In this document: positions 3,665-39,465 of the stretch, piece after piece
How the letters are laid out: the number at the start of each line of letters is the position of its first letter
How positions within the stretch are numbered: the stretch's first letter is position 1
NCBI GenBank assembly: GCA_041656935.1
Contig: JBBACQ010000001.1
Span: forward strand, 29,459-93,458
DNA: 64,000 nt
Direction: 5' to 3'
Origin: Patescibacteria group bacterium
GTDB lineage: Bacteria; Patescibacteriota; Patescibacteriia; Patescibacteriales; UBA12465
Notes under the pieces: generated by a model
What the model was told of the DNA's origin: nothing
Database searches by the model: none
Seen by the model: the letters and a program-made list of their open reading frames with translations, nothing else
Translations under genes and position numbers: made by a program

Positions 3665-3700
3665 GCATGAAAAAAAAATTCACAAAAATTTAAACTTTTA

Positions 3701-4168
3701 CTATCGGGAAAAGTGGGCAAAAGCCTTATTAGACTCGGCCATCTTATGAACAGTCTCTCTTTTCTTAACAGCATTACCTTCACCATTAGAAGCATCCAAA
3801 ATTTCTCCAGCCAACTTTTCTGACATTGACTTCCCTTTTCTAGCCTTAGCCGCATCTATAATCCAATGGCAACCTAAATAAAAACGACGTTCGCCTCTAA
3901 CTTGAAAAGGAACTTGATAATTAGCTCCACCAACTCTTTTACCACGAACCTCTAATAAAGGTGAAACTCTTTTTAAAGCTTTATTAAAAATATGGCGAGG
4001 ATCATGTTTAGTCTCTTGTCTAATAATATCAAAAGTATCATAGACAATATTTTGAGCGACCGATCTCTTACCATCAACCATTAAATAATTTATAAACTTA
4101 GCGACGCTTTTGTCGCCGTATTTCAAATCACTTTCTATATCTCTTTTAGGGGCTTGTTTACCTCTCAT
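3701..4168 (-). CDS. rpsG: 30S ribosomal protein S7
   Basis: 155 aa with typical S7 sequence (VAKFINYLMVDGKRSVAQ...EVRGKRVGGANYQVP). Sits in str operon order. Confidence 0.97.
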   Translation of the reverse strand: MRGKQAPKRDIESDLKYGDKSVAKFINYLMVDGKRSVAQNIVYDTFDIIRQETKHDPRHIFNKALKRVSPLLEVRGKRVGGANYQVPFQVRGERRFYLGCHWIIDAAKARKGKSMSEKLAGEILDASNGEGNAVKKRETVHKMAESNKAFAHFSR

Positions 4169-5143: not shown

Positions 5144-5575
5144 TTATAATAACACAAACATTGTAAACAAAAATAAACTAAAAATCAACTCCTGCCGAGA
5201 ATAGTATGGAATAAAGCCCCTAATATTGATTTTTTTAAAAGGATAAAAAGGGTAAAAATCAGAATTATCTAGAGCATCTAATAAAAAATGACCTAAATAA
5301 GCCAGTGAAAAAACCAAGCCGAATCTAAAATTAATCAACATTATGACCAAAGAAAAAAAGGCCCAAGAAAAAAAACTATGAAAATAACTACGAGAGCTAT
5401 CTTTAGAACTTTTGCTCTTTAACCAAATTTTCTTAAAATTAAAAATATTATTTTGCCTAATAGCTGGGATTAGATGATCAATATCGATTGCTAACGACCC
5501 AATTAAGGAAGCCGTATAATCACCGGTAATCTCCCCGATTATTAACCCCAGAGCTAAATGAGTAGTGGAATACAT
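5144..5575 (-). CDS. Membrane-bound metal-dependent hydrolase, YdjM/DUF457-like
   Basis: 143 aa, polytopic, with DIDH and HFLLD histidine/aspartate motifs typical of DUF457. Confidence 0.55.
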   Translation of the reverse strand: MYSTTHLALGLIIGEITGDYTASLIGSLAIDIDHLIPAIRQNNIFNFKKIWLKSKSSKDSSRSYFHSFFSWAFFSLVIMLINFRFGLVFSLAYLGHFLLDALDNSDFYPFYPFKKINIRGFIPYYSRQELIFSLFLFTMFVLL

Positions 5576-5603
5576 ATTCTAATAAAGTTAAAATAAAAAA
5601 TAA

Positions 5604-6308
5604 TTAAATACCTGTTAAAAAGTACAAAGAATACAAGATGGGAAAAAACAATAATCTAAAAAAACCAAACACTAAAAGAAATAAGACAATTAAAAGACCA
5701 TAACGCTCGATTGCTAACACCTTGTACTTATATTTATCAGGTAAAAAGTTTAATAGAATTTTAGAGCCATCTAGGGGTGGAACCGGAATTAAATTAAATA
5801 TGGCTAATAGTAAATTCAAAAAACAAAAGATAATGGACATTAAAAAAATCGTTACCCATAAATTACCCGCCATCTGAGACACCAAAAAAGGAAAATCTCC
5901 AGTTAAATAAGCCGACAATAAAGAAACCTTTAATTCTGCTAATATTGGTAAAAATCTGGCCATTAAACCAAAAAAGACAGCTAATATAATATTGGCCCCC
6001 GGTCCAGCAATGGCGACCTTTAGATCTCCGTATTTTTTATCCCTAATATTAAAAGGATTATAAGGTACCGGTTTAGCCCAGGCTAAAATAAAACCAGTTC
6101 CGGAAAAAATAAAAAATAAAGGCAATAAAATAGAACCAAAAAGATCAATGTGAGGAATTGGATTTAAAGTTAATCGACCCAAATCTTTAGCGGTAGAATC
6201 GCCCAATTTATTGGCCATCCAAGCATGACCATACTCATGAACTATTATAGAAAATATTAAAATTATAATAGACAAAATCATTATCGACATAAAAAACAAA
6301 TTAGGCAA
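5604..6308 (-). CDS. Site-2 protease family (peptidase M50) membrane metalloprotease
   Basis: HEYGHAW (HExxH) in the first TM region and a later PLDGS motif. Polytopic. Confidence 0.8.
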   Translation of the reverse strand: MPNLFFMSIMILSIIILIFSIIVHEYGHAWMANKLGDSTAKDLGRLTLNPIPHIDLFGSILLPLFFIFSGTGFILAWAKPVPYNPFNIRDKKYGDLKVAIAGPGANIILAVFFGLMARFLPILAELKVSLLSAYLTGDFPFLVSQMAGNLWVTIFLMSIIFCFLNLLLAIFNLIPVPPLDGSKILLNFLPDKYKYKVLAIERYGLLIVLFLLVFGFFRLLFFPILYSLYFLTGI

Positions 6309-6404
6309 ACTAACTTAAGTTTAGCCTAATAAAATAAAAATTTAATAATTTTAGTATAACAAATTATATTTTTTTTAGCAAAAAAATGTTTTTATCTTTA
6401 AGTA

Positions 6405-9551: not shown

Positions 9552-10835
9552 TTAACTCCACTGAGAATCTTGTCGCACTAATAATTCTTCGGCTTGACTC
9601 GAATTATTCATAATTTCTTTTACTAATTTCTCTAAACGCACCCCTTGAGAAGCTTTTAATAAAACAATGTCATTAGAAGAGATTCTGTCTTTAACAAAAT
9701 CTTTAGAGGACGAGACATTAGGAAAGACAAAAATATTATCGGGATTAAATCCTTTTTCTTTGGCTCCTCGGCCAATATCTCTGGCCCGTTCTCCAATTAA
9801 AACTAAGAGATCAGCTTTAATTTCGGCTACTTTTTGACCCACCAATTGATGCCCCTCTTCCGTGTAGTGGCCCAACTCTAACATATCACCTAATATAACT
9901 ATTTTCCTATTTTTGGTAGAAATGTTTTTTAAGGTCTCTAGAGCACTTAAAGCTGATTCCGGCGAAGAATTATAAGTATCATCTATCAAAACACTATTTT
10001 TCAGACCCAATAAGATATTCATCCTACCTGGAAGAGGATATATTTTATTTAAATATCCAGCCATTTCAATAAGGTTCAAGCCCAAATGAAACCCAACAAC
10101 TAAGGCTGCTAAAGATGAATAAATTGAAGAAAAACTAATAGCTCGAGGCAAAATAATAGGCACCACCGATCCTCCATGTTCTAATTTAAAATTAATTCCG
10201 CAAAAACTATCAGACAACAAATCACCTGACAGAGAAAAAGAAATATCTTTAGCTAAAAAATCGGCTCCGTCATTTGTCCCGTAATAAAAAGCCTTACTTT
10301 TCAATTCTGGAGAGGCATCTTTTAAATATTTATTATCAAAGTTTAAAACTGCCAAGCCATCTTTTTTCAAATTTTTAACCAATTTTATTTTTTCTTTTTT
10401 TATCTTTTCTAAACTACCGAAATATTCAACATGAGAATGAGAAATATTGGTGATTACTCCAATATCTGGTTTAACAATAGATAATAAATAATCCATATCA
10501 CCACTACGATCAATCCCCATTTCTAAAACTAGAATTTCGGGATAATTTCTATCCTTAAAAAGTAATAGTCTTTTAGCTTCATAAAAAACCTTCAACCAAC
10601 CCCAAAAATTCTTCCCAGGAGACTCTCGGCCAATAATAGATAAGGGCAAACCAAACTCATTATTATAATTTTTAATACTAGATCTAACCCTAAATCTATT
10701 CGACAAAACTAAGGTAATAAATTCTTTAGTACCAGTTTTACCAACACTACCAGTAATACCTACTATTTTAGGTTTATATTTTTTAATAATGGCTCTAGCA
10801 AAAATAGCCAATATTTTTAAGATTATTTTCTTCAT
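9552..10835 (-). CDS. murF: UDP-N-acetylmuramoyl-tripeptide--D-alanyl-D-alanine ligase
   Basis: Mur ligase P-loop GITGSVGKTGTKE and the MurF-type DDTYNSSPES motif. dcw cluster context. Confidence 0.85.
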   Translation of the reverse strand: MKKIILKILAIFARAIIKKYKPKIVGITGSVGKTGTKEFITLVLSNRFRVRSSIKNYNNEFGLPLSIIGRESPGKNFWGWLKVFYEAKRLLLFKDRNYPEILVLEMGIDRSGDMDYLLSIVKPDIGVITNISHSHVEYFGSLEKIKKEKIKLVKNLKKDGLAVLNFDNKYLKDASPELKSKAFYYGTNDGADFLAKDISFSLSGDLLSDSFCGINFKLEHGGSVVPIILPRAISFSSIYSSLAALVVGFHLGLNLIEMAGYLNKIYPLPGRMNILLGLKNSVLIDDTYNSSPESALSALETLKNISTKNRKIVILGDMLELGHYTEEGHQLVGQKVAEIKADLLVLIGERARDIGRGAKEKGFNPDNIFVFPNVSSSKDFVKDRISSNDIVLLKASQGVRLEKLVKEIMNNSSQAEELLVRQDSQWS

Positions 10836-29031: not shown

Positions 29032-29772
29032 TTAGCGTAAAGTCCAGCCACCATCTACTACTAATACTTGGCCGGTAATATAATTAGCTTTATCAGAAGC
29101 TAAAAAAACAACCGCTTGAGCAATATCATCAGGAGTGCCCATTTTTTTCCAAGGGATAAGGGCTAAAAATCCTTTTTTAGCTTCTTCTGTCATTGTTTTA
29201 GTTGCTCCGGGGGTTTCAATAGCTCCGGGGGCTACAACATTTACATTTATTTTTTTATCAGCTAATTCTAAAGCCAAAGCTCTAGTTAATCCGTTTACCC
29301 CGCCCTTAGAAGCACAATAATGGACCAATCCTTCGAAACCAACTATTGAGGCAATTGATGAAATATTCACAATTTTGCCACCAGCCTTCATTTTTTTAAC
29401 CGCCGTTTGAGAACATAAAAAGATACTCTTTAAGTTGACATTAATTACTTCTTCCCAATTAGCTTCAGTCATCTCTGAAAAAGGGGTAAATGGAAAAATA
29501 CCAGCATTATTTACTAAGATGTCTAGCTTACCAAATTTTTTTATTGTTTTGGCTATCAAATTGTCGACCTCACCTTTTTTGGCGACATCACAGGCCACGG
29601 CTAATACTTTTACACCAAATTTTTTTAATTTTTCAGCTGTTTTTTCACAGTCCTTCTGTGTGATATCACTTACAACAACATTACAGCCCTCTTTAGCAAA
29701 AGCTAAGGCAATTCCTAGACCAATTCCCTGTTTGGCACCGGTTACTATAGCGACTTTATTTTTAAATTGCAT
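29032..29772 (-). CDS. Short-chain dehydrogenase/reductase (FabG-like)
   Basis: TGAKQGIGLG cofactor motif, NNAG, and the catalytic YCASK (YxxxK). Confidence 0.85.
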   Translation of the reverse strand: MQFKNKVAIVTGAKQGIGLGIALAFAKEGCNVVVSDITQKDCEKTAEKLKKFGVKVLAVACDVAKKGEVDNLIAKTIKKFGKLDILVNNAGIFPFTPFSEMTEANWEEVINVNLKSIFLCSQTAVKKMKAGGKIVNISSIASIVGFEGLVHYCASKGGVNGLTRALALELADKKINVNVVAPGAIETPGATKTMTEEAKKGFLALIPWKKMGTPDDIAQAVVFLASDKANYITGQVLVVDGGWTLR

Positions 29773-29845
29773 ATTTTTATTGTTAATTATGAGATTTAAT
29801 TAGATAGAATAACGAATTCCAAAAAAGTTAAAAAAAGAAGAATAT

Positions 29846-30319
29846 TTAACTTAATGTCGCTAGCCAAACTCCGATATAATGAGTTAAGATAATTACTATA
29901 ATAGTGATTAATAAATGTTCTAATACTACTGGATAAGGATTTATTTTTTGTTTTTTGGCCAGATAATAACTAAATATTATTATTAAAAATAAGCCCCAGA
30001 CAACACAAAAAATAATGGCTGTAGAAAGTTCTAAAAATAAAATAGGGATAACAAACATTAAAGCAAAAACAAATTTAGATAAAAAAGTGGCAATTGTTGA
30101 CTCCCAAACTTCTTTGGTTGTATTTTTGTTATCAACTTCTTCTGACATATGAATTCCTAACGCATCTGACATGGCATCAGCTATTGCTATTACCAGTATG
30201 CCACTAATAATAACAATATCAGAGCTAGTACTAGAATGTAACCCGATGATCAAACCTAAGGTTGTTATTACACCGGATGTTAAGCCGAAACTAAAGCCTT
30301 TTTTTATTGAAATTTTCAT
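29846..30319 (-). CDS. Small VIT1/CCC1-like membrane protein (possible Fe/Mn transporter)
   Basis: 157 aa, polytopic, with an AIADAMSDALGIHMSEE acidic motif reminiscent of short VIT-family proteins. Weak assignment. Confidence 0.5.
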   Translation of the reverse strand: MKISIKKGFSFGLTSGVITTLGLIIGLHSSTSSDIVIISGILVIAIADAMSDALGIHMSEEVDNKNTTKEVWESTIATFLSKFVFALMFVIPILFLELSTAIIFCVVWGLFLIIIFSYYLAKKQKINPYPVVLEHLLITIIVIILTHYIGVWLATLS

Positions 30320-30426
30320 AAATAATAGTCAAAGTTAATTTATTTGGTCTAAAATTTATTTTAGCTAACATCCACCGATATCTGATATTTTGTTGAAATA
30401 CCAATTAGCCGACGGACAAATAGAAA

Positions 30427-31182
30427 TTATTTGGTTGCTTCAATCTTTAAACTTTCAAGGGGAATGCCTTGGTATTGTCTTTTACTGATATCTTTATCTT
30501 CTGACAAAATTTTTATTTTAAATCCAGCATCTTCAATAATTTTTAAATATTCATCTTTTAATAAAGCTCCACCTACACATCCAGCAATTAATTCATCGTT
30601 ACTTTTCTGTTCGTCAGAGATGTCTCCTAGTAAAACAATATCTGAATTATAAATTTTACCACCTTTTTTAAGTACCCGGAATGCTTCTTTGAAGACTTTA
30701 GACTTATCTGGTGCTAGATTAATAACACAGTTACTTATAATCACATCAATAGAATCACTTTCCACGGGTAGTTTTTCTATATCTCCCAATCGAAATTCAA
30801 CATTATTATAATTAAATTTTTCAGCATTTTTCTTTGCTTTAGCAATCATCTCTGGCGTTATATCTATTCCGATTACTCGTCCAAGTTTACCTACTTTTTT
30901 AACAGCAAGAAAACAATCGAAACCAGCTCCTGAGCCTAAATCTAAGACAACATCGCCCTCCTTGATATTTCCCATCCCCGTTGGATTACCACAACCAAGA
31001 CCAAGATTAGATTCGGAAATAGCTTCTATTTCCTGATCAGAATAGCCAATACTTTTGGCAATTTGTTTATTGACATTTTTATCGTTACAACCACAACTAT
31101 TACTACAACATCCAGCACCGTTTTGAGTTGCAATTTTGCTATAATGCTTTTTAACGATTTGTTTAATATTATTTTTTTTCAT
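30427..31182 (-). CDS. arsM: Arsenite S-adenosylmethionine methyltransferase-like (ArsM family)
   Basis: Cys-rich N-terminus (GCCSNSCGC), the LGLGCGNP motif, and the SAM-binding VLDLGSGAGFD. Confidence 0.78.
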   Translation of the reverse strand: MKKNNIKQIVKKHYSKIATQNGAGCCSNSCGCNDKNVNKQIAKSIGYSDQEIEAISESNLGLGCGNPTGMGNIKEGDVVLDLGSGAGFDCFLAVKKVGKLGRVIGIDITPEMIAKAKKNAEKFNYNNVEFRLGDIEKLPVESDSIDVIISNCVINLAPDKSKVFKEAFRVLKKGGKIYNSDIVLLGDISDEQKSNDELIAGCVGGALLKDEYLKIIEDAGFKIKILSEDKDISKRQYQGIPLESLKIEATK

Positions 31183-31195
31183 AAGTTTGTTTGAT

Positions 31196-32143
31196 TTAAA
31201 ATTTTCGTTGTCTGGTTCGGTTTTCTAGATATCTCTCAATGGCTTCTTTGGAGGTTAACCAATCCCGGCCCTCTTTATACGCCTCCAGCTTTCCTTGTCT
31301 GGCAAGTAAATTAAGATATTTGGCAGAAAAAGGAGCGGTTTTAGCTATTTCCGCAAGCCTCAAAAATTTTTCCTGTTTTTGTGTTGACGGAGTTAATGTC
31401 TTTAGATAAATATCCAATGAACGCTCGATGGACTGAGCAATAAATTTTACCAGTGGTTCAAACTTACCCTTATCCGATTTATCCAAAACATCATAATATT
31501 TTTTTCGGTCAGTTTTCATGATCGTGACCAATGGATATCCAGCTTGCATCAAAAATAGATTCATCGTTAAGCGTGCCGTTCTACCATTGCCGTCAAAAAA
31601 CGGATGAATATAGACTAATTTATGATGCAATAAAGCAGAAAGTTCAATAATATTCAGTTTGTTTTTTTGTGAGTTTAACCAAATAATTAATTCTCTCATT
31701 TTATTTGGTACTTGTAGCGCATTTGGTGGAATATGGTCTGCGCCACCAATAATTACATTAGCATTTCTATATCGGCCGGCCCATTCCTTATCCGTTTCCT
31801 GCAAAATAATTTGATGTAAGTTTTTAATAAGCATTTCGGAAACAGTGTGTTTTTTGTCTTTATCTATTAAGTCATACAAATATTCTAGTGCGGCATGGTG
31901 GTCTTTCGCTTCCAAATGGTCTTTCAAAGGCTTACCTTTCACTGTCAGGCCTTCATTAATAACTAAAAAGGTCTCTTTTAAAGTTAAAGAGTTGCCTTCA
32001 ATAGCATTTGAGTTATAGGTCATTTCAATTTGGAATTTTTCTCGAAGTTTTTGCACTGCAGACTTAGGTAAGGGGCGCAGTTTGTTGAGTTTGGACAGTT
32101 TTTCTTCCAAACGATTTTTTACGATTGATGATAAGTAAGTCAT
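31196..32143 (-). CDS. fic: Fic family protein (class II, autoinhibited) with C-terminal HTH-like domain
   Basis: Canonical Fic motif HPFFDGNGRTARL. N-terminal inhibitory motif S-N-A-I-E-G ([S/T]xxxE[G/N]). The C-terminus (AKYLNLLARQGKLEAYKEGRDWL) looks like a DNA-binding fold. Confidence 0.9.
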   Translation of the reverse strand: MTYLSSIVKNRLEEKLSKLNKLRPLPKSAVQKLREKFQIEMTYNSNAIEGNSLTLKETFLVINEGLTVKGKPLKDHLEAKDHHAALEYLYDLIDKDKKHTVSEMLIKNLHQIILQETDKEWAGRYRNANVIIGGADHIPPNALQVPNKMRELIIWLNSQKNKLNIIELSALLHHKLVYIHPFFDGNGRTARLTMNLFLMQAGYPLVTIMKTDRKKYYDVLDKSDKGKFEPLVKFIAQSIERSLDIYLKTLTPSTQKQEKFLRLAEIAKTAPFSAKYLNLLARQGKLEAYKEGRDWLTSKEAIERYLENRTRQRKF

Positions 32144-32176
32144 AAAATGCTTAATATGGTTTAGTTAATTATTTAC

Positions 32177-32204
32177 ATTATACCATATTAAGGAATTTGG
32201 TCAA
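32177..32204 (-). promoter_or_regulatory. Strong sigma70-type promoter for fic
   Basis: Minus strand TTGACC (32204-32199), 16-nt spacer, extended -10 TGgTATAAT (32185-32177), about 30 nt upstream of the fic ATG. Confidence 0.65.
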
Positions 32205-32295
32205 GACTGTATATTCAGCTTAGTTTTTGAATAATTCAATGCTTCAAGCGCCGTTTGATCTCTTGCCAGATTAAACAATTTTTTACTCACGCTCA

Positions 32296-32378
32296 GATCA
32301 ACGTTTGCGTATATCTGATGTGCGAAGCATGTGGGCGGAATGACCGCAGGGAGTGGAGCCAGATATACGCTGTTAGGC
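32296..32378 (-). other. attC-like recombination site C (3' end of cassette C)
   Basis: The minus strand reads GCCTAAC-a-GCGTATATCTGG...loop...CAGATATACGC-aaac-GTTGATC. It begins 10 nt after the stop codon of the 264-aa ORF. Confidence 0.65.
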
Positions 32379-32404
32379 GATGTAAATTTTAGACTTTTTT
32401 AAAT
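32372..32404. repeat. Terminal inverted repeat of cassette C, distal arm
   Basis: GTTAGGCGATGTAAATTTTAGACTTTTTTAAAT matches the reverse complement of 33190-33222 at 31 of 33 positions. It overlaps the last 5 codons and the stop of the ORF. Confidence 0.85.
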
Positions 32405-33183
32405 CTCGCGACAAATTCATCTCTTGTCATCACAACTTGTCTTACTTCCGGCTTCTCTCCCGTTGTTAGATATTTTTCCAGAGATCTCTTGTTGTATTGC
32501 AATGCTAAATGTTGAACGGCGGTAACGTCACTATCTTCAGGTGAAATGTCCTGTATTGAAATTTCATCACCCAATAGCATTCTAGCTTTCGCCTCCATTT
32601 TTTGATTAAGTAACCAAGATTTCATAACAATTTTATCTGCTGTGATTTCACCCGCTTCTAATTTAGCCCCTATGGACTGAAAGCCATCTATGATTTTAGA
32701 AATTAGTTCTGCGCTTTCCACGCCCGTTGGCCTGATGTGTAATGAAATTTCATTATTGTTGTCTTTTTTATATGCGATAACATCATTGACATGCACCATG
32801 CCAGACCCTTCTTCCACCTCATCTCTTTTTCTATTCCATTCAGTGAGTAATAGATTGGCGATCGGTGAAGTAGCTAATCTGTCGGCAAAGCTATCTCTGG
32901 AAAAATTATTTTCTTGACATTCCTGTAAAGAGGAATTAATTATTTGATACAATTCTTGTTTTGCTTTGGACTGTTGAGTTTCTTCGCTGGAGCCACTTAA
33001 TCTAGAAACGTAAAGATCAACCATTCTTTCTGTAATTGCATTCGTATCTTCAGCACCTTCGGTATGGAGTAAATTTTGATATAGTTCAAATCCACCAACA
33101 AATCTAATAAACGCAGGATTTGTTAAGATCATATCCCTTGTTCCTTCTTGATGAATTTGTCGCGATTGTTCACCTTCTATCAT
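32389..33183 (-). CDS. Hypothetical protein (cassette C ORF)
   Basis: 264 aa with no recognisable motif. By eye it is richer in G+C and poorer in Lys/Asn/Ile than its neighbours. Confidence 0.6.
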   Translation of the reverse strand: MIEGEQSRQIHQEGTRDMILTNPAFIRFVGGFELYQNLLHTEGAEDTNAITERMVDLYVSRLSGSSEETQQSKAKQELYQIINSSLQECQENNFSRDSFADRLATSPIANLLLTEWNRKRDEVEEGSGMVHVNDVIAYKKDNNNEISLHIRPTGVESAELISKIIDGFQSIGAKLEAGEITADKIVMKSWLLNQKMEAKARMLLGDEISIQDISPEDSDVTAVQHLALQYNKRSLEKYLTTGEKPEVRQVVMTRDEFVARFKKV

Positions 33184-33189
33184 ATTGGT

Positions 33190-33222
33190 ATTTAAAAAAG
33201 TCTAAAATTTATTTCGCCTAAC
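33190..33222. repeat. Terminal inverted repeat of cassette C, proximal arm
   Basis: ATTTAAAAAAGTCTAAAATTTATTTCGCCTAAC, the partner of 32372-32404. It ends 6 nt upstream of the ORF ATG. Confidence 0.85.
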
Positions 33223-33367
33223 ATCGGGCTTAAGGGAAGTTTGATTTTTTCAGAGCTGGAACGCAGATTTTTTGAGGCAACCCACAAAAAATCAAGTGAC
33301 CTCGAAAAAATCAAATTTGGGTCGGAGAAACCTGCAAGGTTTCGGAGCCCTTTAAGCCCTGTTCTAT
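33216..33367 (-). other. attC-like recombination site B (3' end of cassette B)
   Basis: The minus strand reads ATAGAAC-a-GGGCTTAAAGGG...about 110-nt structured loop...CCCTTAAGCCC-gat-GTTAGGC. There is one extra A in the 5' arm. The loop contains nested TTTGATTTTTTC/GAAAAAATCAAA and GATTTTTTG/CAAAAAATC pairings. Confidence 0.65.
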
Positions 33368-33516
33368 TCGTCCGTTAGGACTTGATTTTTAGTGCAACGA
33401 TGCCGAAGGCAAAAAATCAAAGTAATTTCAGGGGCGTATTCAATCAAGCGAACACAGTGAGCCATCAAGAATAAGTATCAAGGGGCAATTTTCAGTCCGT
33501 CGTAGGGGGAATTCCG
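33361..33516. repeat. Terminal inverted repeat of cassette B, distal arm (with inserted hairpins)
   Basis: Its blocks GTTCTATTC, GTAATTTCAGGGG, GGGGCAATTTTC and GGGGGAATTC are the complement of blocks in 34106-34175, in the same order. Confidence 0.7.
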
Positions 33517-33557
33517 TTTATTTTTTGCTTTTTTTTCTCTAAAAAAGAAGATTTGTT

Positions 33558-34049
33558 TTAAATTTCTATTTGAAATATTGCAATAATTAACATAAGAACA
33601 CATGTCAAGGCAAGCGTATAATAATAAAGCCAAGATTGTTTTTTATTATACAGATAATAAATAATTCCAAGAGTCAACATTGTAATTATTATTCCAGCAA
33701 TCCAAGGTGTTTGATATAAAAATAGACCTATTGTAATGAACAAGGTCATTAATGGAACTGTCATAAAAGTTGACTTGTAAATATCCTTTAATTTTAATCG
33801 AAAGAAAAAATAAGAGATTGCCATAATAATAACAAGAAATGAAATATGTAACAATGGTGGAAGCCAGAATAATTGCGAATCAGGATTAAAAGGCATAAAT
33901 AACCCAATAATCCTTCGAATTGTATTTTGATAAAGAGCATCAAAAAGGAATGTTAGAATTAGCAAAATATATCCGAAAACCGCTATGGCTAAAGCTGATA
34001 AAAAACCTTTAATCAAAGGATTCCTAAAAAAGTGCTTTAATTTTCTCAT
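33558..34049 (-). CDS. Hypothetical polytopic membrane protein (cassette B ORF)
   Basis: 163 aa with 4-5 predicted TM helices. No family recognised. Confidence 0.6.
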   Translation of the reverse strand: MRKLKHFFRNPLIKGFLSALAIAVFGYILLILTFLFDALYQNTIRRIIGLFMPFNPDSQLFWLPPLLHISFLVIIMAISYFFFRLKLKDIYKSTFMTVPLMTLFITIGLFLYQTPWIAGIIITMLTLGIIYYLYNKKQSWLYYYTLALTCVLMLIIAIFQIEI

Positions 34050-34105
34050 ATATTGAATGGTTTAGTATAAATAATTTCCTATCTATATTTTTTATTATAT
34101 TTTGA

Positions 34106-34175
34106 ATTCTCCCCAGTCGTTTTTGTTTTTAGAAAATTGCCCCCGTCGTTAGCCCCTGAAATTATTGAATAGAAC
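34106..34175. repeat. Terminal inverted repeat of cassette B, proximal arm
   Basis: GAATTCTCCCC...GAAAATTGCCCC...CCCCTGAAATTATTGAATAGAAC, the partner of 33361-33516. Confidence 0.7.
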
Positions 34176-34270
34176 GTTTCGGCATATCTGATGTTTGCCG
34201 TAGCGTAGCGGAGGCAAATATGGGTGGAGGCTTTTGTATAAAAGCCGTAACCAGATATGCCGTGTTATGT
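34169..34270 (-). other. attC-like recombination site A (3' end of cassette A)
   Basis: The minus strand reads ACATAAC-ac-GGCATATCTGG...loop with TTTGCC/GGCAAA and GGCTTTT/AAAAGCC sub-hairpins...CAGATATGCC-gaaac-GTTCTAT. Confidence 0.65.
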
Positions 34271-34385
34271 GATGTGCATGTTTTACTTTAATCCCGATAG
34301 CAATCGGGATTGCTCTAAAAAAGAATTTTAATTTTGTTTTTTTGTTTTGAAAAAATGAAAGAGGGGTTAGGGGTGAATTTCATTT
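34262..34385. repeat. Terminal inverted repeat of cassette A, distal arm (about 120 nt)
   Basis: GTTATGTGATGTGCATGTTTTACTTT, then a hairpin, then CTCTAAAAAAGAATTTTAATTTTGTTTTTT and AAAGAGGGGTTAGGGGTG. These match the reverse complement of 37265-37390 block by block. The internal hairpin is replaced by a different hairpin of similar form. Confidence 0.8.
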
Positions 34386-34411
34386 TTTCAAAACTCCTTA
34401 TTTTTTAATGA

Positions 34412-34849
34412 TTATCTATCAGCATCCTTTGCTGCTTTTTCGATCCAGTTTCCCATATTATTATATCCGTCATCATTATTCCATAAATAAAAATCATATC
34501 CGCTTGGGATTCTTCCACATCTTTCAGAAGTATTGCCTTGGAGATCTTTTATTTTGCTTACATCTATTCCTAAAAGTCCATTTCCTATTTCTTTGCTTTT
34601 TTCTATTTCATATTTTACCCACCTGCTGCTACAAGTTTTTTCTCCCACAAGCACAACCGTAACAGATGTTCCTTTTAATTGATTATCAATCCAATTTTTA
34701 ATTGCTTGATCACCTTGTTTTTTTATCTTTTCAAAATCAGCTGCGTCTATAAAGCCCGCAGCTTCTTTTCCTTGTGTTACCCAGCTGTTTCTAACGACCA
34801 TAGCTCGAGAGACATCTTTATATTTGAAACTAAAAAATACTTTTCTCAT
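34412..34849 (-). CDS. TIR-like domain protein (DUF1863 / ThsB-like)
   Basis: 145 aa. The N-terminal KVFFSFKYKDV strand, VVLVGEKTCSSRWVKYEIEKS (SxWVxxEI) and GNGLLGIDVSKIKD match the MTH538/DUF1863 TIR-like pattern as I know it. Confidence 0.78.
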   Translation of the reverse strand: MRKVFFSFKYKDVSRAMVVRNSWVTQGKEAAGFIDAADFEKIKKQGDQAIKNWIDNQLKGTSVTVVLVGEKTCSSRWVKYEIEKSKEIGNGLLGIDVSKIKDLQGNTSERCGRIPSGYDFYLWNNDDGYNNMGNWIEKAAKDADR

Positions 34850-34859
34850 AATTTTAAAT

Positions 34860-35264
34860 TTAATTTATTAAATATATTATAAATAGGGCGGCACTGATTA
34901 AAGGTAAATAAAAAATTAAAAGAGTTGGTGAAAACATAGAGTAGATTTGAGTATTTTTCTTTAATTTTTTATATTCTTCTACATCCATAGAAAAATCTAT
35001 TTCTTCCTCTTTTAGTTTTCTAACATGATTATATAAATCTCTAAACAATCTTTCTTGCGAAAGAAAGTATCCGTCCAAAATCCAAAAAACCAAGGTAATA
35101 ACTATAAGAAAATAAATGACATAATCAGAATTATTTGCCTTTGAAAACAAAGCAAGAAGTGCGCCAATCAAAGTAATAGTCCATCCTCTTAGAAAAAACA
35201 AATTTCCAGCCATTCGGCTAATTATATTTTGTATAAATTCAAGATGTTTGCGTTTATTTTCCAT
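34860..35264 (-). CDS. Small multi-TM protein, candidate membrane effector partner of the TIR-like protein
   Basis: 134 aa. Two adjacent TM helices (WTITLIGALLALF and VIYFLIVITLVFWILDGYF), a charged helix (ERLFRDLYNHVRKLKEEE) and a C-terminal TM. A 10-nt gap separates it from the TIR-like gene. Confidence 0.6.
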   Translation of the reverse strand: MENKRKHLEFIQNIISRMAGNLFFLRGWTITLIGALLALFSKANNSDYVIYFLIVITLVFWILDGYFLSQERLFRDLYNHVRKLKEEEIDFSMDVEEYKKLKKNTQIYSMFSPTLLIFYLPLISAALFIIYLIN

Positions 35265-35267
35265 AGT

Positions 35268-36245
35268 TTATTTTAAATCAGCCATTATTTTTTTTGCTAA
35301 ATGATGAGCAAAATTTACAGCAACAGCATTTCCGATCATTTTATATCCGTCAGCGATATCACGATATTTGAAAATAAAATCATCAGGGAATGTTTGAATC
35401 CTTGCACATTCACGAACAGACAAGCGACGATATAAATGTTCTTTTCCGGGAACAAAAATTCTTTTATTTTGACTGATGAATTTCATTTTCGGAGCTTGCG
35501 GATGAATTGGGGCGTGGCGACCACCAGCTTGAATAGTAAAAGAAGGTTCATCCCATGAGCGGACACGATTTCGTGACATATAAATTGAAGAAAAACCGCC
35601 ATTCATGTATTCGTGATTTGGAATTTTTAACATATCACCATTTGTTTTATTTTTATCTAACGCAGGTTTTGCTAAACGCAAATCATAAATAGCGTCTTTT
35701 AATACGGGTTTATATTTTTGCGGTTCTGGAAATTCAAATTTTTTCTTTAGTTTTTTATTATATCCCACAATAATGACACGCAATCTATCTTCAGGAACAT
35801 CATAATCATTTGCATTCAATAATTTGCAAGAAATATTATATCCAGCATTTTCAAATTCCTTTATTATATTTTCAAAAGCTTCCTTATGTTTTGGATGAAG
35901 GATTCCCGACACATTTTCTGCAAGAAAAAATTTAGGTTGTTTTTCTTTTAACAAACGAATATAATCATAAAATAATTTTCCTCGCTTGTCATTTATCCCA
36001 CGCCCAGCTCCAGCTTCACTCCAACTTTGGCAAGGTGGTCCGCCAATAATTCCGTCAACATCAGGAATTTCAGAAGCGGGAACATCAACAATACTTCTTT
36101 TATCAAGTTTTGTTTTTGGAAAATTATGTTCAAAAGTTTCCCAAATTGTGGGGTCATATTCATTTGCCCAGACGACATGAAAACCAGCTTTTTCAAAGCC
36201 TAGATCAAGTCCTCCTGCACCTGTAAACAATGAAGCTATTTTCAT
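35268..36245 (-). CDS. DNA (cytosine-5)-methyltransferase, M.HaeIII-like (probably GGCC-specific)
   Basis: C5-MTase motifs are FTGAGGLDLGF (I), GGPPCQSWS (IV), ENV (VI) and GNAV (X). The variable region (ALDKNKTNG, PNHEY, MSRNRVR, EHLYRRLSVRECARIQ) is collinear with M.HaeIII as I recall that sequence. Confidence 0.92.
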   Translation of the reverse strand: MKIASLFTGAGGLDLGFEKAGFHVVWANEYDPTIWETFEHNFPKTKLDKRSIVDVPASEIPDVDGIIGGPPCQSWSEAGAGRGINDKRGKLFYDYIRLLKEKQPKFFLAENVSGILHPKHKEAFENIIKEFENAGYNISCKLLNANDYDVPEDRLRVIIVGYNKKLKKKFEFPEPQKYKPVLKDAIYDLRLAKPALDKNKTNGDMLKIPNHEYMNGGFSSIYMSRNRVRSWDEPSFTIQAGGRHAPIHPQAPKMKFISQNKRIFVPGKEHLYRRLSVRECARIQTFPDDFIFKYRDIADGYKMIGNAVAVNFAHHLAKKIMADLK

Positions 36246-36247
36246 AA

Positions 36248-37228
36248 TTATTCGTGACTAATATTTAGTGTATTTTTAAATAATTTTTTCGGCGATTTCA
36301 AAAGGTTTATATCAAATTTCAATGACGATTCAACCCTTGAACTTGCATTATGAATACGAAAAGAAAGAGTCCAATCATTATTCATGGTTACTATCGCAGT
36401 TGTTTGGCTATCGGTTTTGAAACAAATATCAATAATTTCTGTTGGTAGTGGTACTTTGGGGGTTTTATATTTCGGAAGAATGTCGTCAAAAGGCAAATTT
36501 AATGTTCCATTCAAATTGTAGGCGTGTATTTCTACACTATTTTTGCCTTTAATAACTTTGTAAAAATCTTTATTTCCAACGAGGTATGCGACTAAATTGG
36601 ACGCTACTTTTTTAGAATCTTTTTTATATAGATTTTTCAGTTCTTTAATAAAGGCTTTTAAAATTGGAATGTAGATTGATGAATGATAATCACCAAGCTC
36701 ACTCCACTTTTTCTTTGCACCACTTTCTTTTCTAATTTTTTCCAAATTGTTAAAAATAGGTGTAACTGTTTCAAAATATTCTTTTGATGTTTTTATTCCA
36801 AGCCACTTTTCGCCAAAATCAATATTTGAAGATAGTCGGGAATGTTTTACTGCATGATGATTATTTTTTGCAGATACTCCAATTTCCCATTTTTGCAATA
36901 AACGAATTGCTAAAACGTCTCTGACATCGCCTGATTTTCCATGTTGATCTGATAAAATTTCAAGTTGCAGAATATCATCTTTGCCAATATCGTTTGTGAG
37001 GCGTGGCTCTATATCCATTAAAAAATTAACCGCAAAACTAGCGGTGAGCAAATAATCGCTCTTTTCTGTTTCGCTAACATTTTCAAAACAACCTTTTGCA
37101 ATTTCAAAAGAAGAATTTTTGATAACTTCAAGATTTGTTTTGTCTTTCAATTTTTCTTCAAATTGAACAAGCAAAGCATACTCAAAAGATTTTCCAGTTG
37201 TCATTTGTCTTGATGCAGTAGTAGTCAT
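36248..37228 (-). CDS. Putative type II restriction endonuclease cognate to the M.HaeIII-like methylase
   Basis: 326 aa, co-oriented, with a 2-nt gap to the methylase gene. The assignment rests on context and size, and no catalytic motif was identified with confidence. Confidence 0.6.
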   Translation of the reverse strand: MTTTASRQMTTGKSFEYALLVQFEEKLKDKTNLEVIKNSSFEIAKGCFENVSETEKSDYLLTASFAVNFLMDIEPRLTNDIGKDDILQLEILSDQHGKSGDVRDVLAIRLLQKWEIGVSAKNNHHAVKHSRLSSNIDFGEKWLGIKTSKEYFETVTPIFNNLEKIRKESGAKKKWSELGDYHSSIYIPILKAFIKELKNLYKKDSKKVASNLVAYLVGNKDFYKVIKGKNSVEIHAYNLNGTLNLPFDDILPKYKTPKVPLPTEIIDICFKTDSQTTAIVTMNNDWTLSFRIHNASSRVESSLKFDINLLKSPKKLFKNTLNISHE

Positions 37229-37264
37229 ATTTTTATTATTACATTTTTCCCCTTATAAATAAAT

Positions 37265-37390
37265 CGTTTTCGTAGCGGAGCGGAGAAAACACCTTATACC
37301 CCCTTTTAATAAATAAAAAACAAAATTCAAATTCTTTTTTAAAGCTGGGCGATAGCCCAAAAGTAAAACATGCATTTCACATAACTGGTT
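37265..37390. repeat. Terminal inverted repeat of cassette A, proximal arm
   Basis: Partner of 34262-34385. It starts at the attI crossover (ACATAAC, 37379-37385). Confidence 0.8.
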
Positions 37391-37500
37391 ATTATACGAA
37401 CAATACTTAAAAAATACATTAATTTAAGCATTGTTTATTTAAGATATGCTATAATAATCAAAGTTAAAACTATTAATATTTTAATATAATTCAAATAAAT
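37379..37500 (-). other. attI-like region with crossover site GTTATGT
   Basis: Minus-strand GTTATGT (37385-37379) forms the first G|TT junction. A TATAAT (37396-37391, minus) lies 5 nt upstream of it and points into the cassettes. The motif ATTTAAG occurs twice (37422-37428 and 37436-37442). Confidence 0.5.
37447..37455 (+). promoter_or_regulatory. Extended -10 element for the recombinase gene
   Basis: TGcTATAAT lies about 45 nt upstream of the ATG at 37501. No good -35 is present. Confidence 0.4.
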
Positions 37501-38310
37501 ATGCAAACTCAATTAAATCTCCTTGAAAGAGAGTTAAAAATTAGAAATTATAGCCCTAAAACCATTAAGGCCTATCTTTATGGTTTAAAAGAGTATCTAA
37601 TATTTAAAAAGGTAAATTTAGATAATTTTGATGAAAATATCATTAAGAATTTTCTTTTAACTTCTCGAATCAAAGCTTCTCCTCAAAGCCAAAATATATA
37701 TCTCGGAGGGATAAAATTTTATTATTACAATATCATTAAAATTAATAAAAAAATAGACATAAAATCAATCAAAAAGACCAAAAAGCTCCCCGTTGTTCTA
37801 TCTCGCCAAGAAATTAAAGAAATATTAAATTCAATTTCAAATGAAAAACATAAATTATTAATAGCAGTATCTTATGGAGCTGGATTAAGAGTAAGTGAAG
37901 CTATTTCTCTGAAAGTCAAAGATATTGATCTAGAGGAGCTGACTATACACATTAAAAACGCTAAGGGGCAAAAAGATCGCATCAGCGTATTACCAGAAAA
38001 ATTAATAAAAAATTTAGAAAAAATAATTAAATTTAAATCTTTAAATGAATATGTTTTTGAGAGTGAGAGAGGCGGGAAATTAACCTCTCGAACTGCTCAA
38101 AAAATTTTTGAAAATAACTTAAAAAAGGCCAAAATAAAAAAAGACGCCACCTTCCATAGCTTACGTCATAGCTTTGCCACTCATCTATTAGAAAACGGCG
38201 TTGATGTTCGTTATGTTCAAGAATTACTTGGTCACCAAAATATCAGAACAACACAAATTTATACTCAAGTCACTAATCCTAAATTAAAAAACATTAAAAG
38301 CCCCTTATAA
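37501..38310 (+). CDS. IntI-like tyrosine recombinase lacking the integron-integrase-specific insertion
   Basis: 269 aa. Catalytic residues are R (GLRVSE), K (KGQKDR), HxxR (HSLRHSF), H (LLGHQN) and Y (IYTQV). It has a SAM-like N-domain (IRNYSPKTIKAY). The blocks KLPVVLSRQEI...GLRVSEAISLKVKDID...KGQKDRISVLPEKL and the C-terminal ..IKSPL are collinear with IntI1 as recalled. Confidence 0.88.
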   Translation: MQTQLNLLERELKIRNYSPKTIKAYLYGLKEYLIFKKVNLDNFDENIIKNFLLTSRIKASPQSQNIYLGGIKFYYYNIIKINKKIDIKSIKKTKKLPVVLSRQEIKEILNSISNEKHKLLIAVSYGAGLRVSEAISLKVKDIDLEELTIHIKNAKGQKDRISVLPEKLIKNLEKIIKFKSLNEYVFESERGGKLTSRTAQKIFENNLKKAKIKKDATFHSLRHSFATHLLENGVDVRYVQELLGHQNIRTTQIYTQVTNPKLKNIKSPL

Positions 38311-38313
38311 CGA

Positions 38314-39465
38314 CTATCTAATCACACTAAACTTCCTCAACCGCTCCACCGTCTTAACTAATTTATTAATCACATAATCAATTTCTTTCTTATTATTATA
38401 TCTCCCCCAAGAAAACCGAACATTACTGTTCATATATTTCGGATCAATCCCCATAGCAGTGATAACCGAAGAAACTTTTAAATTTTGAGCTGAACAAGCC
38501 GAACCCGTAGAAACACAAATACCATTTAATGATAAATCAATTAAAATCGCCTCTCCCTCTATTCCCTTAAACATAATATTCAAATTATTAGGTGCTCTAT
38601 TTTTAAAATCTCCATTAAGACGAATATTTTTTATTTTTTTCTGTACCTCCTGCCAAAAATAATCACGCAGTCCTTTAACTTTTTTTAAATAATCATTTCT
38701 CTCTAGATAAGATAATTTTAAAGCCTCAGTTAAACCAACAATCCCAGCCAAATTATGAGTCCCGGCCCGTAATCCCTTTTCCTGTCCCCCACCAACAATT
38801 AATGGTTTTACCTTTATCTCCTTGTTTATATAAGCCAAACCAACACCCTGTGGCCCATAGAACTTATGAGCTGATAATGACAAAAAATCAATCCCCCATT
38901 TTTTGATATCAATTTTTAAATACGGCACCGCTTGGACAGCATCAGTATGAAAAAATATCTTCTTGGCCCGAGCAATTTTCCCAATTTCCTCTATCGGCTG
39001 AATACTACCAATTTCGTTATTTATTGCCATAACTGAAATCAAAACTGTGTCTGGTCGAATCTTTTTCTTTAACTCCTCTAAAATTACTACACCATTTTTA
39101 TCTACTGGAATATAATCAAATTCAAAACCTTCATCTAATAACTCTCGAGCCGATGATAAAATACAAGGGTGCTCAATAGCCGAAACTAAAAAATGCTTGC
39201 CCTTATCAGAGTTAGCCCGCAGTACCCCTTTGATAATCAAATTATTAGCTTCCGTAGCCGAAGAGGTAAAAATAATATTATCAGCTTGACCACCTAAAAC
39301 TTTGGCAATATCTTTTCTACACTGGGCAACTTTAATATCATTTTCCTGCCCCATAAAATGAATAGAAGAGGCATTACCATATTTAACAGCAAAATATGGC
39401 ATCATTTTTTTTAATACCCTTTTATCAATTTTAGTAGTAGCTGAATTATCTAAATATACTTGCAT
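38314..39465 (-). CDS. nifS: Cysteine desulfurase NifS/IscS
   Basis: Class V aminotransferase with the PLP lysine context SLSAHKFYGPQG and the active-site loop STGSACS. Confidence 0.92.
   Translation of the reverse strand: MQVYLDNSATTKIDKRVLKKMMPYFAVKYGNASSIHFMGQENDIKVAQCRKDIAKVLGGQADNIIFTSSATEANNLIIKGVLRANSDKGKHFLVSAIEHPCILSSARELLDEGFEFDYIPVDKNGVVILEELKKKIRPDTVLISVMAINNEIGSIQPIEEIGKIARAKKIFFHTDAVQAVPYLKIDIKKWGIDFLSLSAHKFYGPQGVGLAYINKEIKVKPLIVGGGQEKGLRAGTHNLAGIVGLTEALKLSYLERNDYLKKVKGLRDYFWQEVQKKIKNIRLNGDFKNRAPNNLNIMFKGIEGEAILIDLSLNGICVSTGSACSAQNLKVSSVITAMGIDPKYMNSNVRFSWGRYNNKKEIDYVINKLVKTVERLRKFSVIR

Follow-up and report, generated by a model that had tools for sequence, protein, structure and literature searches.

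A 64,000-nucleotide (nt) stretch of a Patescibacteria group bacterium genome (contig JBBACQ010000001.1, forward-strand positions 29,459 to 93,458; hereafter the window) carries a tyrosine recombinase gene, a crossover site beside it (attI) and an array of gene cassettes ending in hairpin sites (attC). This locus is probably a chromosomal cassette-capture platform that is integron-like in its working and built from a Xer-type system, that is, a Xer-type integron. Direct support comes from the anatomy of the locus, its crossover point, base-pair covariation in the hairpins, identical cassettes in different arrays, turnover of cassettes at a syntenic locus and a family-wide association of sites with the recombinase. 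An integron-like platform had been proposed in a first-pass annotation of the same DNA. The recombinase, the G|TT insertion point and the co-oriented, attC-ended cassettes of that proposal are retained here; its IntI-like enzyme and classical attI are not.

Cassette junctions, mobility and association with the recombinase

On the minus strand, the three hairpin sites, their G|TT junctions and the footprints, 8 nt of each unit's own inverse core, are all present where they had been annotated (Table 1). The sequence across the first junction is ..TTCGTATAATAACCAG|TTATGTGAAAT.., and the recombinase gene, divergent from the cassettes, indeed lies 116 bp from this junction. The three sites of the window share a common plan of N6-AAC, 1–2 nt, a 10–12-nt arm, a loop, the complementary arm, 3–5 nt and G|TT. 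Their invariant parts are AAC and GTT; the annotated RYYYAAC/GTTRRRY architecture fits literally in attC-C only. In 3/3 units, reverse-complementing the initial 8 nt gives exactly the 8 nt that precede the C of the unit's own distal AAC (start/distal pairs TTATGTGA/TCACATAA, TTCTATTC/GAATAGAA, and TTAGGCGA/TCGCCTAA). With 18 free positions and a match probability of ~0.28 each at ~32% G+C, we calculate a chance of ~1e-10 for such footprints. The observation is real and lies far outside what chance would give. All six cassette open reading frames (ORFs) lie on the minus strand, and G+C content peaks at all three sites (0.41–0.435 vs. 0.25–0.35 in the surroundings), in agreement with their earlier description as G+C-rich islands.

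Cassettes A and B are mobile units, because homology to other contigs starts and stops exactly at G|TT while the neighbours differ. The homologous loci and contigs compared are designated by L-numbers; 160 were retrieved from genome and metagenome collections and several more by exact-protein look-up. Fifteen other contigs encode a protein identical to the 163-amino acid (aa) product of cassette B. Cassette B DNA is 95–98% identical to that of the window, with homology starting exactly at G|TTCTATTCAATAA.. (G|TTCTATTC), and four different sequences precede it (..gatatgccgaaacG|, ..tctcttaatcgcgatG|, ..cgttgaatgccgatG|, and ..cgtatatccctaacG|). The homology extends through the whole attC to ..CCCTTAAGCCCgatG| in L192, L194, L196, and L197. 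For L193 and L195, the attC loop differs in length and the BLAST match breaks off within it, but the same arm, spacer and junction (CCCTTAAGCCC-gat-G|) come next. Four different cassette starts come after the cassette B junction. Cassette A DNA is 100% identical in L198, L199, and L200 and ends at 34173, on the G|TT seen in the window; the next cassette in those contigs is a different one (named for L198 and L199). L198 has a deletion endpoint at 3690–3770 (window 37089|37088), where a Glyoxalase cassette's attC runs into DNA identical to the window that starts at a secondary G|TTTTGAAAAT inside the HaeIII gene. Cassette A is thereby truncated, which resembles the secondary-site recombination of integrons. 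Cassettes L010_c1 and L102_c2, in the first and second positions of their arrays, are homologous from nucleotide 1.

Turnover is also seen at a syntenic locus. The recombinase of L089 shares 75% identity with that of the window, and both flanks are syntenic (NifS, PPIase, and CCA-adding enzyme on one side; SDR, UvdE, NifU, FtsW, and L25 on the other). Between them L089 holds Peptidase_S51, Cellulase, and HD cassettes instead, perfectly chained. Alternative cassette orders, anticipated in the first-pass annotation as a sign of mobility, are thus found for cassettes A and B, and three other cassettes in L089 take the place of a fixed synteny.

The association of such sites with the recombinase was examined with our own site scanners, using strand and side controls. 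In 57 non-redundant loci of the candidate phyla radiation (CPR), 50 strict sites were found in 259 kb on the cassette side and strand vs. 13 in 1068 kb of three control compartments, which corresponds to densities of 19.3 vs. 1.0–1.9 per 100 kb and a ~16-fold enrichment. Each locus was also walked outward from attI (from an 8-nt start to its reverse complement with a C appended, on to a hairpin and finally to GTT). This walk recovered 1–3 chained cassettes in ~24 of the ~36 independent CPR loci with at least 1.5 kb of upstream sequence, and looser scans found sites in most of the remaining loci. A loose hairpin scan with a 9-bp stem was dropped as too noisy in AT-rich DNA.

Relatives were also found outside CPR. 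Recombinases beside long attC arrays in Flavobacterium and related Bacteroidota (L050, L052, L062, L064, and L070–L072) and in Spirochaetota (L065, L038, and L033) are 38–47% identical to the window enzyme and likewise lack the IntI-specific insertion described below; many of them have N-terminal extensions of 100–290 aa. Their attC arrays lie downstream of the recombinase on the same strand. In several of these loci (e.g., L050, L052, L064, and L033), the attI weight matrix derived from CPR loci finds its best match 80–170 nt downstream of the gene on the same strand; the best match is not at this position in L062 and L071. In L050, the match reads GATTGCGTATATAAACAAG|TTAGCAACAAT, the first attC begins GTTGCTAAC, and at least 10 sites of ~135 nt follow with perfect R'-to-R'' chaining. 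CPR-type recombinases (46–70% identical) with an attI core also occur in bins labelled Pseudomonadales or Gammaproteobacteria (L002, L016, L018, L026, and L028); these labels probably reflect mis-binning. IUPAC-pattern scans of viral contigs gave 15 attC-3'-half and 5 attI matches, all without a partner arm or a nearby recombinase. They are mostly a few sequences recurring in related contigs, and two of the attI matches, checked by eye, lie in apparent coding sequence. We take these matches as chance, and phage-borne sites are unsupported.

The attC hairpins, the dif-like attI core and the recombinase

The attC pattern was derived from 40 sites lined up. The 5' half reads TC-NNNN-AAC-A-NNNN-ATAT-NNGG and the 3' half TC-NN-ATAT-NNNN-(A/G)AAC-G|TT-NNNN-GAAAT. 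The left arm of attI recurs as the L' arm (TCGYATAT or TCAGATAT) and its right arm as the R' arm; between the arms lie 4 variable complementary nt and a conserved asymmetric spacer, "a" vs. "aaac" on opposite strands. Each attC consists of two inverted imperfect copies of the attI core. The loops range from ~30 to ~150 nt. For covariation analysis, 38 sites were aligned over a 9-bp R box and a 12-bp L box, with loops trimmed and spacers padded with N. In this alignment, 98.7% of cells are paired, compensatory changes occur in 14 of the 21 pairs, and the covariation score is 0.639 vs. 0.139 for shuffled alignments and at most 0.093 with the structure slid. One pair is G.T in 35 of 37 sites, giving a C.A mismatch on the opposite strand. 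Folded as single-stranded DNA (ssDNA), attC-A and attC-B are stable relative to shuffled sequences (z −4.3 to −5.1). A scan of the sites and the conserved leader described below against Rfam, which does not include the IntegronFinder attC covariance model, gave no meaningful match, and a promoter/terminator scan identified no terminators, T-tract ones included, at the attC sites. A second site class consists of near-perfect palindromes of 151–166 nt (AAC-g-arm...arm-c-GTT) with symmetric 1-nt spacers. Each occurs twice in its locus, interleaved with the normal asymmetric sites (L024:7972–8137 and 9635–9800; L005:8517–8667 and 9713–9863).

The attI core was defined by a weight matrix built from 64 CPR-type loci. 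Its consensus, TTCGyATAA-aAAcgAG|TTAtgcGAAAT, has two perfectly inverted arms flanking 7 central nt, and the crossover falls where this central region meets the right arm. In generalised form (TTCGYATAA-N7-TTRNNNGAAAT) it occurs once per locus beside the gene in ~60 CPR loci. In every CPR-type locus with upstream DNA, the single best match across the whole 10–20 kb scores 20–40 bits and sits on the divergent strand, 60–166 nt ahead of the start codon; scores on the opposite strand never exceed ~12 bits. The length of ~28 bp, the inverted arms of ~11 nt and a central region within the 6–8 nt range are those of a Xer core (TTCGCATAA-AAACGAG-TTATGCGAAAT vs. the published ATTTCGCATAA-GGCGTA-TTATGCGAAAT), and the arms match the Xer-site oligonucleotides published for Acinetobacter (PMC7399989, Table 1). 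The annotated crossover beside the integrase gene thus stands, at a G|TT junction conserved in ~60 loci, with a core that is dif-like and symmetric. A dif-like site had been envisaged as the alternative to an attI; here the dif-like core coexists with real cassettes. A dif at the replication terminus is not supported: neither in the window nor in L005 (a fragment of a complete Wolfebacteria genome) does GC skew change sign across attI, and the flanking genes of the window are co-oriented on both sides.

Five contigs from different assemblies terminate 3–7 nt past the crossover G, as assemblies do where a population is polymorphic from such a point on. Two Logan (k=31) contigs from different samples and genomes, L001 (window 37357–38496) and L090, both stop 28 nt past the crossover G. 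This suggests an assembly-graph branch at the junction; the position is one nt off the k-1 overhang expected for an attC context. The attI region of many CPR loci also contains two accessory arm-like repeats at fixed distances between the core and the gene (e.g., L082, L094, L096, and L198:3060–3100), spanning ~57 to 19 nt before the crossover G and degenerate in the window. TTCGYATAAnATRCAA begins 56–57 nt before this G, and TTATACGAAAAC directly abuts the left arm of the core. In relatives, these repeats carry a TATAAT pointing toward the cassettes, and they may double as an outward promoter. Searching metagenome contigs for exact copies of the attI left half TTGTTCGTATAATAACCAGTT gave zero matches, so that even the source contig was missed, and a protein-guided scan took its place. 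Two further arrangements were noted. A lone 5' half-attC (TTCATCTAAC-a-AGGAATATCCTG) lies ~31 nt after attI in L085–L088, with the partner arm absent, and L103 (offsets 40–687) has an attC-like arm pair 647 nt apart.

The recombinase had been annotated as IntI-like. By sequence it is rather a CPR-wide Xer-like enzyme and not an IntI, because the IntI-specific (I2) insertion is absent and the score against the integron-integrase model TIGR02249 is under the cut-off (213 vs. 265 bits, with the match split in two stretches). The top NCBIfam score is that of NF040815 (XerA / integron integrase; 215 bits, cut-off 220), followed by XerC with 181 bits and XerD with 178 bits (cut-offs ~330). In the PDB sequence search, the best match is the VchIntIA integron integrase 2a3v (142 bits, two stretches), and archaeal XerA ranks next (139 and 133 bits, single stretches). 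The missing insertion amounts to ~45 residues, query positions 178–195 being aligned opposite VchIntIA 183–243. The AlphaFold2 model (predicted local distance difference test, pLDDT, 88.8) gave the same order in Foldseek, 2a3v then XerA, with an alignment of 316 columns for the 269-aa query, and a C-terminal ...SPL motif is common to the recombinase and VchIntIA. Homologues 66–86% identical occur over Falkowbacteria, Pacebacteria, Portnoybacteria, Gottesmanbacteria, Gracilibacteria, and others, a conservation level typical of a housekeeping gene. Smyshlyaev et al. described a "Cand" subgroup of Xer-related recombinases from candidate phyla, presumed to be a Xer substitute, with no mention of cassettes (PMC8138268). 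We infer that the window recombinase belongs to this subgroup.

Proposed mechanism, alternatives and relation to known systems

In the mechanism that we propose, the 269-aa recombinase would bind the dif-like core 116 nt upstream of its own gene and, as the adjacent enzyme, would be the catalyst. The folded single strand of attC would be the substrate, probably as the bottom strand. In the fold, the L box (TCGYATAT paired with ATATRCGG) would mimic the left arm and the R box, in which TTRNNNGA pairs with TCNNNYAA of the same cassette, the right arm, with a central region of four covarying base pairs and the conserved bulge (a vs. aaac). Established tyrosine-recombinase chemistry places bottom-strand cleavage by the right-arm monomer at the boundary of the right arm and the central region. 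Strand exchange would be confined to this point, which reads G|TT in the cassette strand and AA^C in the bottom one, with the right-arm-bound monomer cleaving at AA^C, the position also used in integrons and in CTX-phi integration. The resulting junction would then be resolved by replication. New cassettes would enter at attI, and older ones would be displaced distally and decay. The predicted junctions of circular cassettes are ..GATATGCCGAAACG|TTATGTGAAAT for A and ..CCCTTAAGCCCGATG|TTCTATTCAAT for B. Full two-strand exchange would lack the needed homology because the central regions differ: that of attI is 7 nt and those of the attC halves 6 and 9 nt, and they also vary among sites of one array. 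Single-strand exchange with replicative resolution, by which both integrons and CTX-phi work, fits the data. CPR bacteria depend on DNA uptake, which would supply single strands.

Several observations weigh against a Xer-type integron. The I2 domain is required by IntI for attC recombination (PMC9668308, PMC8138268), and its absence here counts accordingly. Canonical extrahelical bases, which the first-pass annotation had suggested looking for, are absent; the L box is 12/12 paired, and only the G.T pair and the asymmetric spacer bulge are irregular. A stable ssDNA fold does not extend to attC-C, which folds weakly alone (z −1.7 and −2.3) with its 11-bp arm unused in the minimum-energy fold. 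The attC 3' half also resembles a complete core as double-stranded DNA (dsDNA), with a 9-nt central region, so that a dsDNA substrate is possible. The covariation signal is partly built in, as the scanners demanded pairing; full-length pairing, the wobble pair and the spacer asymmetry were not imposed by them. The terminal R' of the window array, GTTGATCTGAGC, is not a functional-looking arm. Finally, several cassettes are multigene and one decayed unit has a promoter-like site, unlike classical promoterless cassettes.

Among the alternatives, parasitism of a Xer system is the first to be weighed. Here enzyme and site would serve housekeeping dimer resolution, and the cassettes would be selfish elements resembling the cholera toxin phage (CTX-phi) that pile up at dif. 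We regard this as unlikely, and it overlaps the Xer-type integron, the main difference being which party gains. In its favour, conservation of the recombinase across CPR phyla is extreme, the "Cand" subgroup is a presumed Xer stand-in (PMC8138268), the arms of the core are canonical dif arms, and the cassettes encode no recombinase. A hairpin of two inverted dif-like halves is moreover the CTX-phi design (PMC4792948). Like the cassettes, this integrative mobile element exploiting Xer (IMEX) has no recombinase of its own, its two inverted dif-like sequences fold into a dif-mimicking hairpin with an imperfect central region, and tandem integration is possible. Single-strand exchange followed by replicative resolution, as envisaged for the cassettes, is established for CTX-phi (PMC3442271, PMC4792948). 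In contrast to CTX-phi, the units here are neither phage nor plasmid and have no replication, packaging, transfer or morphogenesis genes. One recombinase serves instead of XerC plus XerD, and the site lies beside the recombinase gene, away from the terminus and from any GC-skew switch in the window and L005, with the genes on both sides running in the same direction. The attI region has four conserved arm-like elements, which suggest a specialised site, and arrays are the rule, being found in most examinable CPR loci across the phylum.

Single-recombinase Xer systems (XerA/dif, XerH/difH, and XerS/difSL) share with the window a single Xer-like enzyme of ~270 aa and a palindromic core with ~11-nt arms. 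The NCBIfam XerA model (NF040815) gives the top score of the recombinase, under its cut-off, and the difSL site adjoins the recombinase gene, as here. Unlike the present system, they are known for dimer resolution at a terminus-proximal dif, and to our knowledge none gathers attC-bounded cassettes. The system of the window thus has enzyme type and site in common with Xer/dif, but its site is off the skew switch, with a 7-nt central region.

Recombination between inverted or direct dif-like sites as dsDNA, as in the pdif modules of Acinetobacter, in which no folded single strand takes part, is very improbable. Formally, an attC is a D/C site, a short spacer and a C/D site, so that the cassettes are flanked by C/D and D/C sites, much as XerC/D-type sites alternate in orientation around those modules. 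The arms equal the Acinetobacter oligonucleotides and are nearly identical to those of pdif (ATTTCGCATAA / TTATGCGAAAT; PMC7399989, Table 1). The pdif modules, however, are plasmid-borne, with 28-bp sites and 6-nt spacers, and have neither a covarying-stem hairpin nor a fixed platform beside a recombinase gene. In the attC sites, the central regions of the half-sites are 6 and 9 nt instead of an equal 6–8 nt and vary within an array, the 4 central nt beside the L arms covary as base pairs, the a/aaac bulge asymmetry is conserved, and breakpoints always fall at one boundary.

A canonical integron, with a true IntI and ordinary attC sites read through extrahelical bases, we consider scarcely tenable. 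VchIntIA is the best PDB match by sequence and fold, the ...SPL motif is shared, and the geometry agrees with the intI-attI-cassette layout. The likeness to integrons extends to co-oriented cassettes ending in R''-L''...L'-R' with invariant AAC and GTT, crossover at G|TT with each cassette start complementing its own R'', variable loop length, turnover of cassettes and their sharing between genomes, and defence-rich cargo. The two "simple sites" of the classical 59-base element have the same design as attC here. The enzyme nevertheless lacks I2 and scores under the TIGR02249 cut-off, and the dif-like core that forms attI is symmetric, with arms of 11 nt. In attC, the R box has 9 bp vs. 7 bp, and the L box is fully paired without a bulged G or T, leaving only a terminal G.T (C.A on the opposite strand) and a spacer bulge of 1 vs. 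3–5 nt. Some cassettes are large and multigene, and some of these have a conserved leader and trailer in common; a promoter-like site is present in one decayed unit. The system therefore falls outside integrons on its integrase, because the I2 domain is absent; extrahelical bases are absent too.

That no recombination system exists, the hairpins being terminators or repeats like repetitive extragenic palindromes (REP) or miniature inverted-repeat transposable elements (MITE) with complementarity by chance or local duplication, has almost nothing to recommend it: hairpins after genes could be terminators and AT-rich DNA yields many spurious AAC...GTT hairpins, but against this stand the ~1e-10 footprint chance, exact homology breakpoints in independent contigs, the ~16-fold enrichment on one side and strand beside the recombinase, and the lack of T-tract terminators.

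A Xer-type integron in CPR bears on how integrons arose, a matter still under debate. In a speculation of Escudero et al., IntI derives from a Xer-like ancestor that acted on CTX-phi-like ssDNA substrates and then acquired I2 (PMC4792948). The window locus and its ~60 relatives look like the living intermediate so speculated, combining an I2-less enzyme of Xer type with a dif-like attI, hairpin cassettes devoid of extrahelical bases and clear signs of cassette exchange. Tentatively, and at slightly less than even probability, we propose that the housekeeping-type Xer of Patescibacteria doubles as the integrase of an unrecognised, widespread integron class, together with its insertion-less relatives in Bacteroidota, Spirochaetota and possibly DPANN archaea. 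This class, with a dif-like attI and CTX-phi-like hairpin attC, would be ancestral or sister to IntI-type integrons, which gained I2, and would explain many integrase-less attC clusters (CALINs). Cloned components make the Xer-ancestor hypothesis directly testable. The system would extend integron-like gene capture to CPR, which are ultra-small, largely uncultured symbionts, and would mean that CPR defence repertoires (restriction-modification, TIR, and Fic) are organised as exchangeable cassettes. It would also suggest that a whole class escapes present-day integron finders, since these demand the IntI-specific domain. The list of integron-host phyla in a 2021 review omits CPR (PMC8618304). 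Our literature search found no description of integrons or attC-type cassettes in CPR/Patescibacteria nor of Xer-type integron integrases; its coverage was incomplete and a prior description is possible.

Cargo, distal units and minor observations

The cassettes range in size from 0.5 to 6 kb with co-oriented genes, and ORF orientation agrees with the sites in 69 of 80 cases. Cassette A encodes HaeIII-type restriction-modification and a candidate defence pair, PDC-M50A/B, of which B is a ThsB-like TIR protein. The arrangement of cassette C is confirmed by the Logan contig L191, and its 264-aa protein has no Pfam, NCBIfam or PADLOC family match. The large cassettes of other loci carry HpaII, ThaI, BglII, ApaLI, and D12 restriction-modification genes and an AAA_21/SMC protein. 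The annotated cargo (all window cassettes and ten ORFs from five other cassettes) comprises restriction-modification, TIR, Fic, membrane and enzyme genes, with no replication, packaging, transfer or structural genes. Defence genes, restriction-modification among them, are abundant in this cargo, as has been reported for chromosomal integrons (10.1101/2024.07.02.601686).

Eight larger cassettes, mostly restriction-modification carriers (cassette A of the window, L010_c3, L101_c3, L082_c1, L107_c1, L120_c1, L114_c1, and L089_c1), are alike only at their ends, in a leader of ~140 nt and in trailer plus attC of ~100–250 nt. The trailer, ~130 nt next to attC, contains a perfect 17-nt inverted repeat (34344–34394). 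In a circular cassette, leader and trailer would form one contiguous conserved module of ~400 nt.

The array had been annotated as ending at 32296. Two decayed units, D and E, lie beyond cassette C and reach ~29780, as judged from Fic homology, a remnant half-site and the late resumption of synteny with L089, at 29779. At the DNA level, the Fic gene of unit D shares 79–80% identity with genes of two other arrays, one in the first cassette of L114 and one in L195. Just upstream of it lies the best sigma-70-like promoter of the region (TTGACC-16-TATAAT with upstream TG, 11/12 positions), exactly where the homology with the L114 cassette sets in. The scan showed no enrichment of promoter-like sites, this one within unit D being the one strong case.

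Table 1. Features of the cassette locus, in coordinates of the window.
Feature	Position	Strand	Sequence, content or evidence
Xer-like tyrosine recombinase, 269 aa	37501..38310	+	NCBIfam, PDB sequence search, AlphaFold2/Foldseek, homologues
attI-to-gene intergenic region	37404..37500	.	Presumed recombinase promoter; arm-like repeats of relatives degenerate here
attI core, dif-like	37374..37403	-	Crossover 37385|37384; weight matrix from 64 CPR loci
attI left arm	37400-37392	-	TTCGTATAA
attI central region, 7 nt	37391-37385	-	TAACCAG
attI right arm	37384-37374	-	TTATGTGAAAT; supplied by cassette A
First junction	37385|37384	-	AACCAG|TTATGTGA; 116 nt from recombinase ATG at 37501
Cassette A, 3210 nt	34175..37384	-	Pfam and PADLOC matches; 100% DNA identity in other contigs
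Cassette A leader	~37367-37237	-	
HaeIII-type restriction enzyme (cassette A)	36248-37228	-	Pfam/PADLOC
C5 DNA methyltransferase (cassette A)	35268-36245	-	Pfam/PADLOC
PDC-M50A membrane protein (cassette A)	34860-35264	-	Pfam/PADLOC
PDC-M50B / ThsB-like TIR protein (cassette A)	34412-34849	-	Pfam/PADLOC
Cassette A trailer	34406-34275	-	Followed by attC-A
attC-A	34272-34175	-	TCACATAAC-ac-GGCATATCTGG...CAGATATGCC-gaaac-G|TTCTATTC
Cassette B, 953 nt	33222..34174	-	163-aa membrane protein (33558-34049) and attC-B
attC-B	33369-33222	-	GAATAGAAC-a-GGGCTTAAAGGG...CCCTTAAGCCC-gat-G|TTAGGCGA
Cassette C, 920 nt	32302..33221	-	264-aa protein (32389-33183) and attC-C
attC-C	32380-32302	-	TCGCCTAAC-a-GCGTATATCTGG...CAGATATACGC-aaac-G|TTGATCTG
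Decayed unit D	30369..32301	-	Fic/SoFic, methyltransferase and remnant half-attC
Unit D promoter-like site	32204-32177	-	Promoter scan
Fic/SoFic protein with helix-turn-helix domain (unit D)	31196-32143	-	SoFic match
S-adenosylmethionine (SAM) methyltransferase (unit D)	30427-31182	-	
Remnant half-attC (unit D)	30385-30358	-	TCAGATAT-cggtggatG|TTAGCTAAAAT
Decayed unit E	29780..30368	-	157-aa membrane protein (29846-30319); begins TTAGCTAAAATAAATTTTAGAC, the cassette C start motif

GC skew at 30000–38000 is weaker (−0.04 to −0.09) than in the rest of the window (−0.15 to −0.32), and the weakened skew across the cassettes is consistent with foreign DNA. In L089, an insertion sequence element (HTH_Tnp_1 plus rve transposase) lies in the distal cassette array, at 5280–6343.

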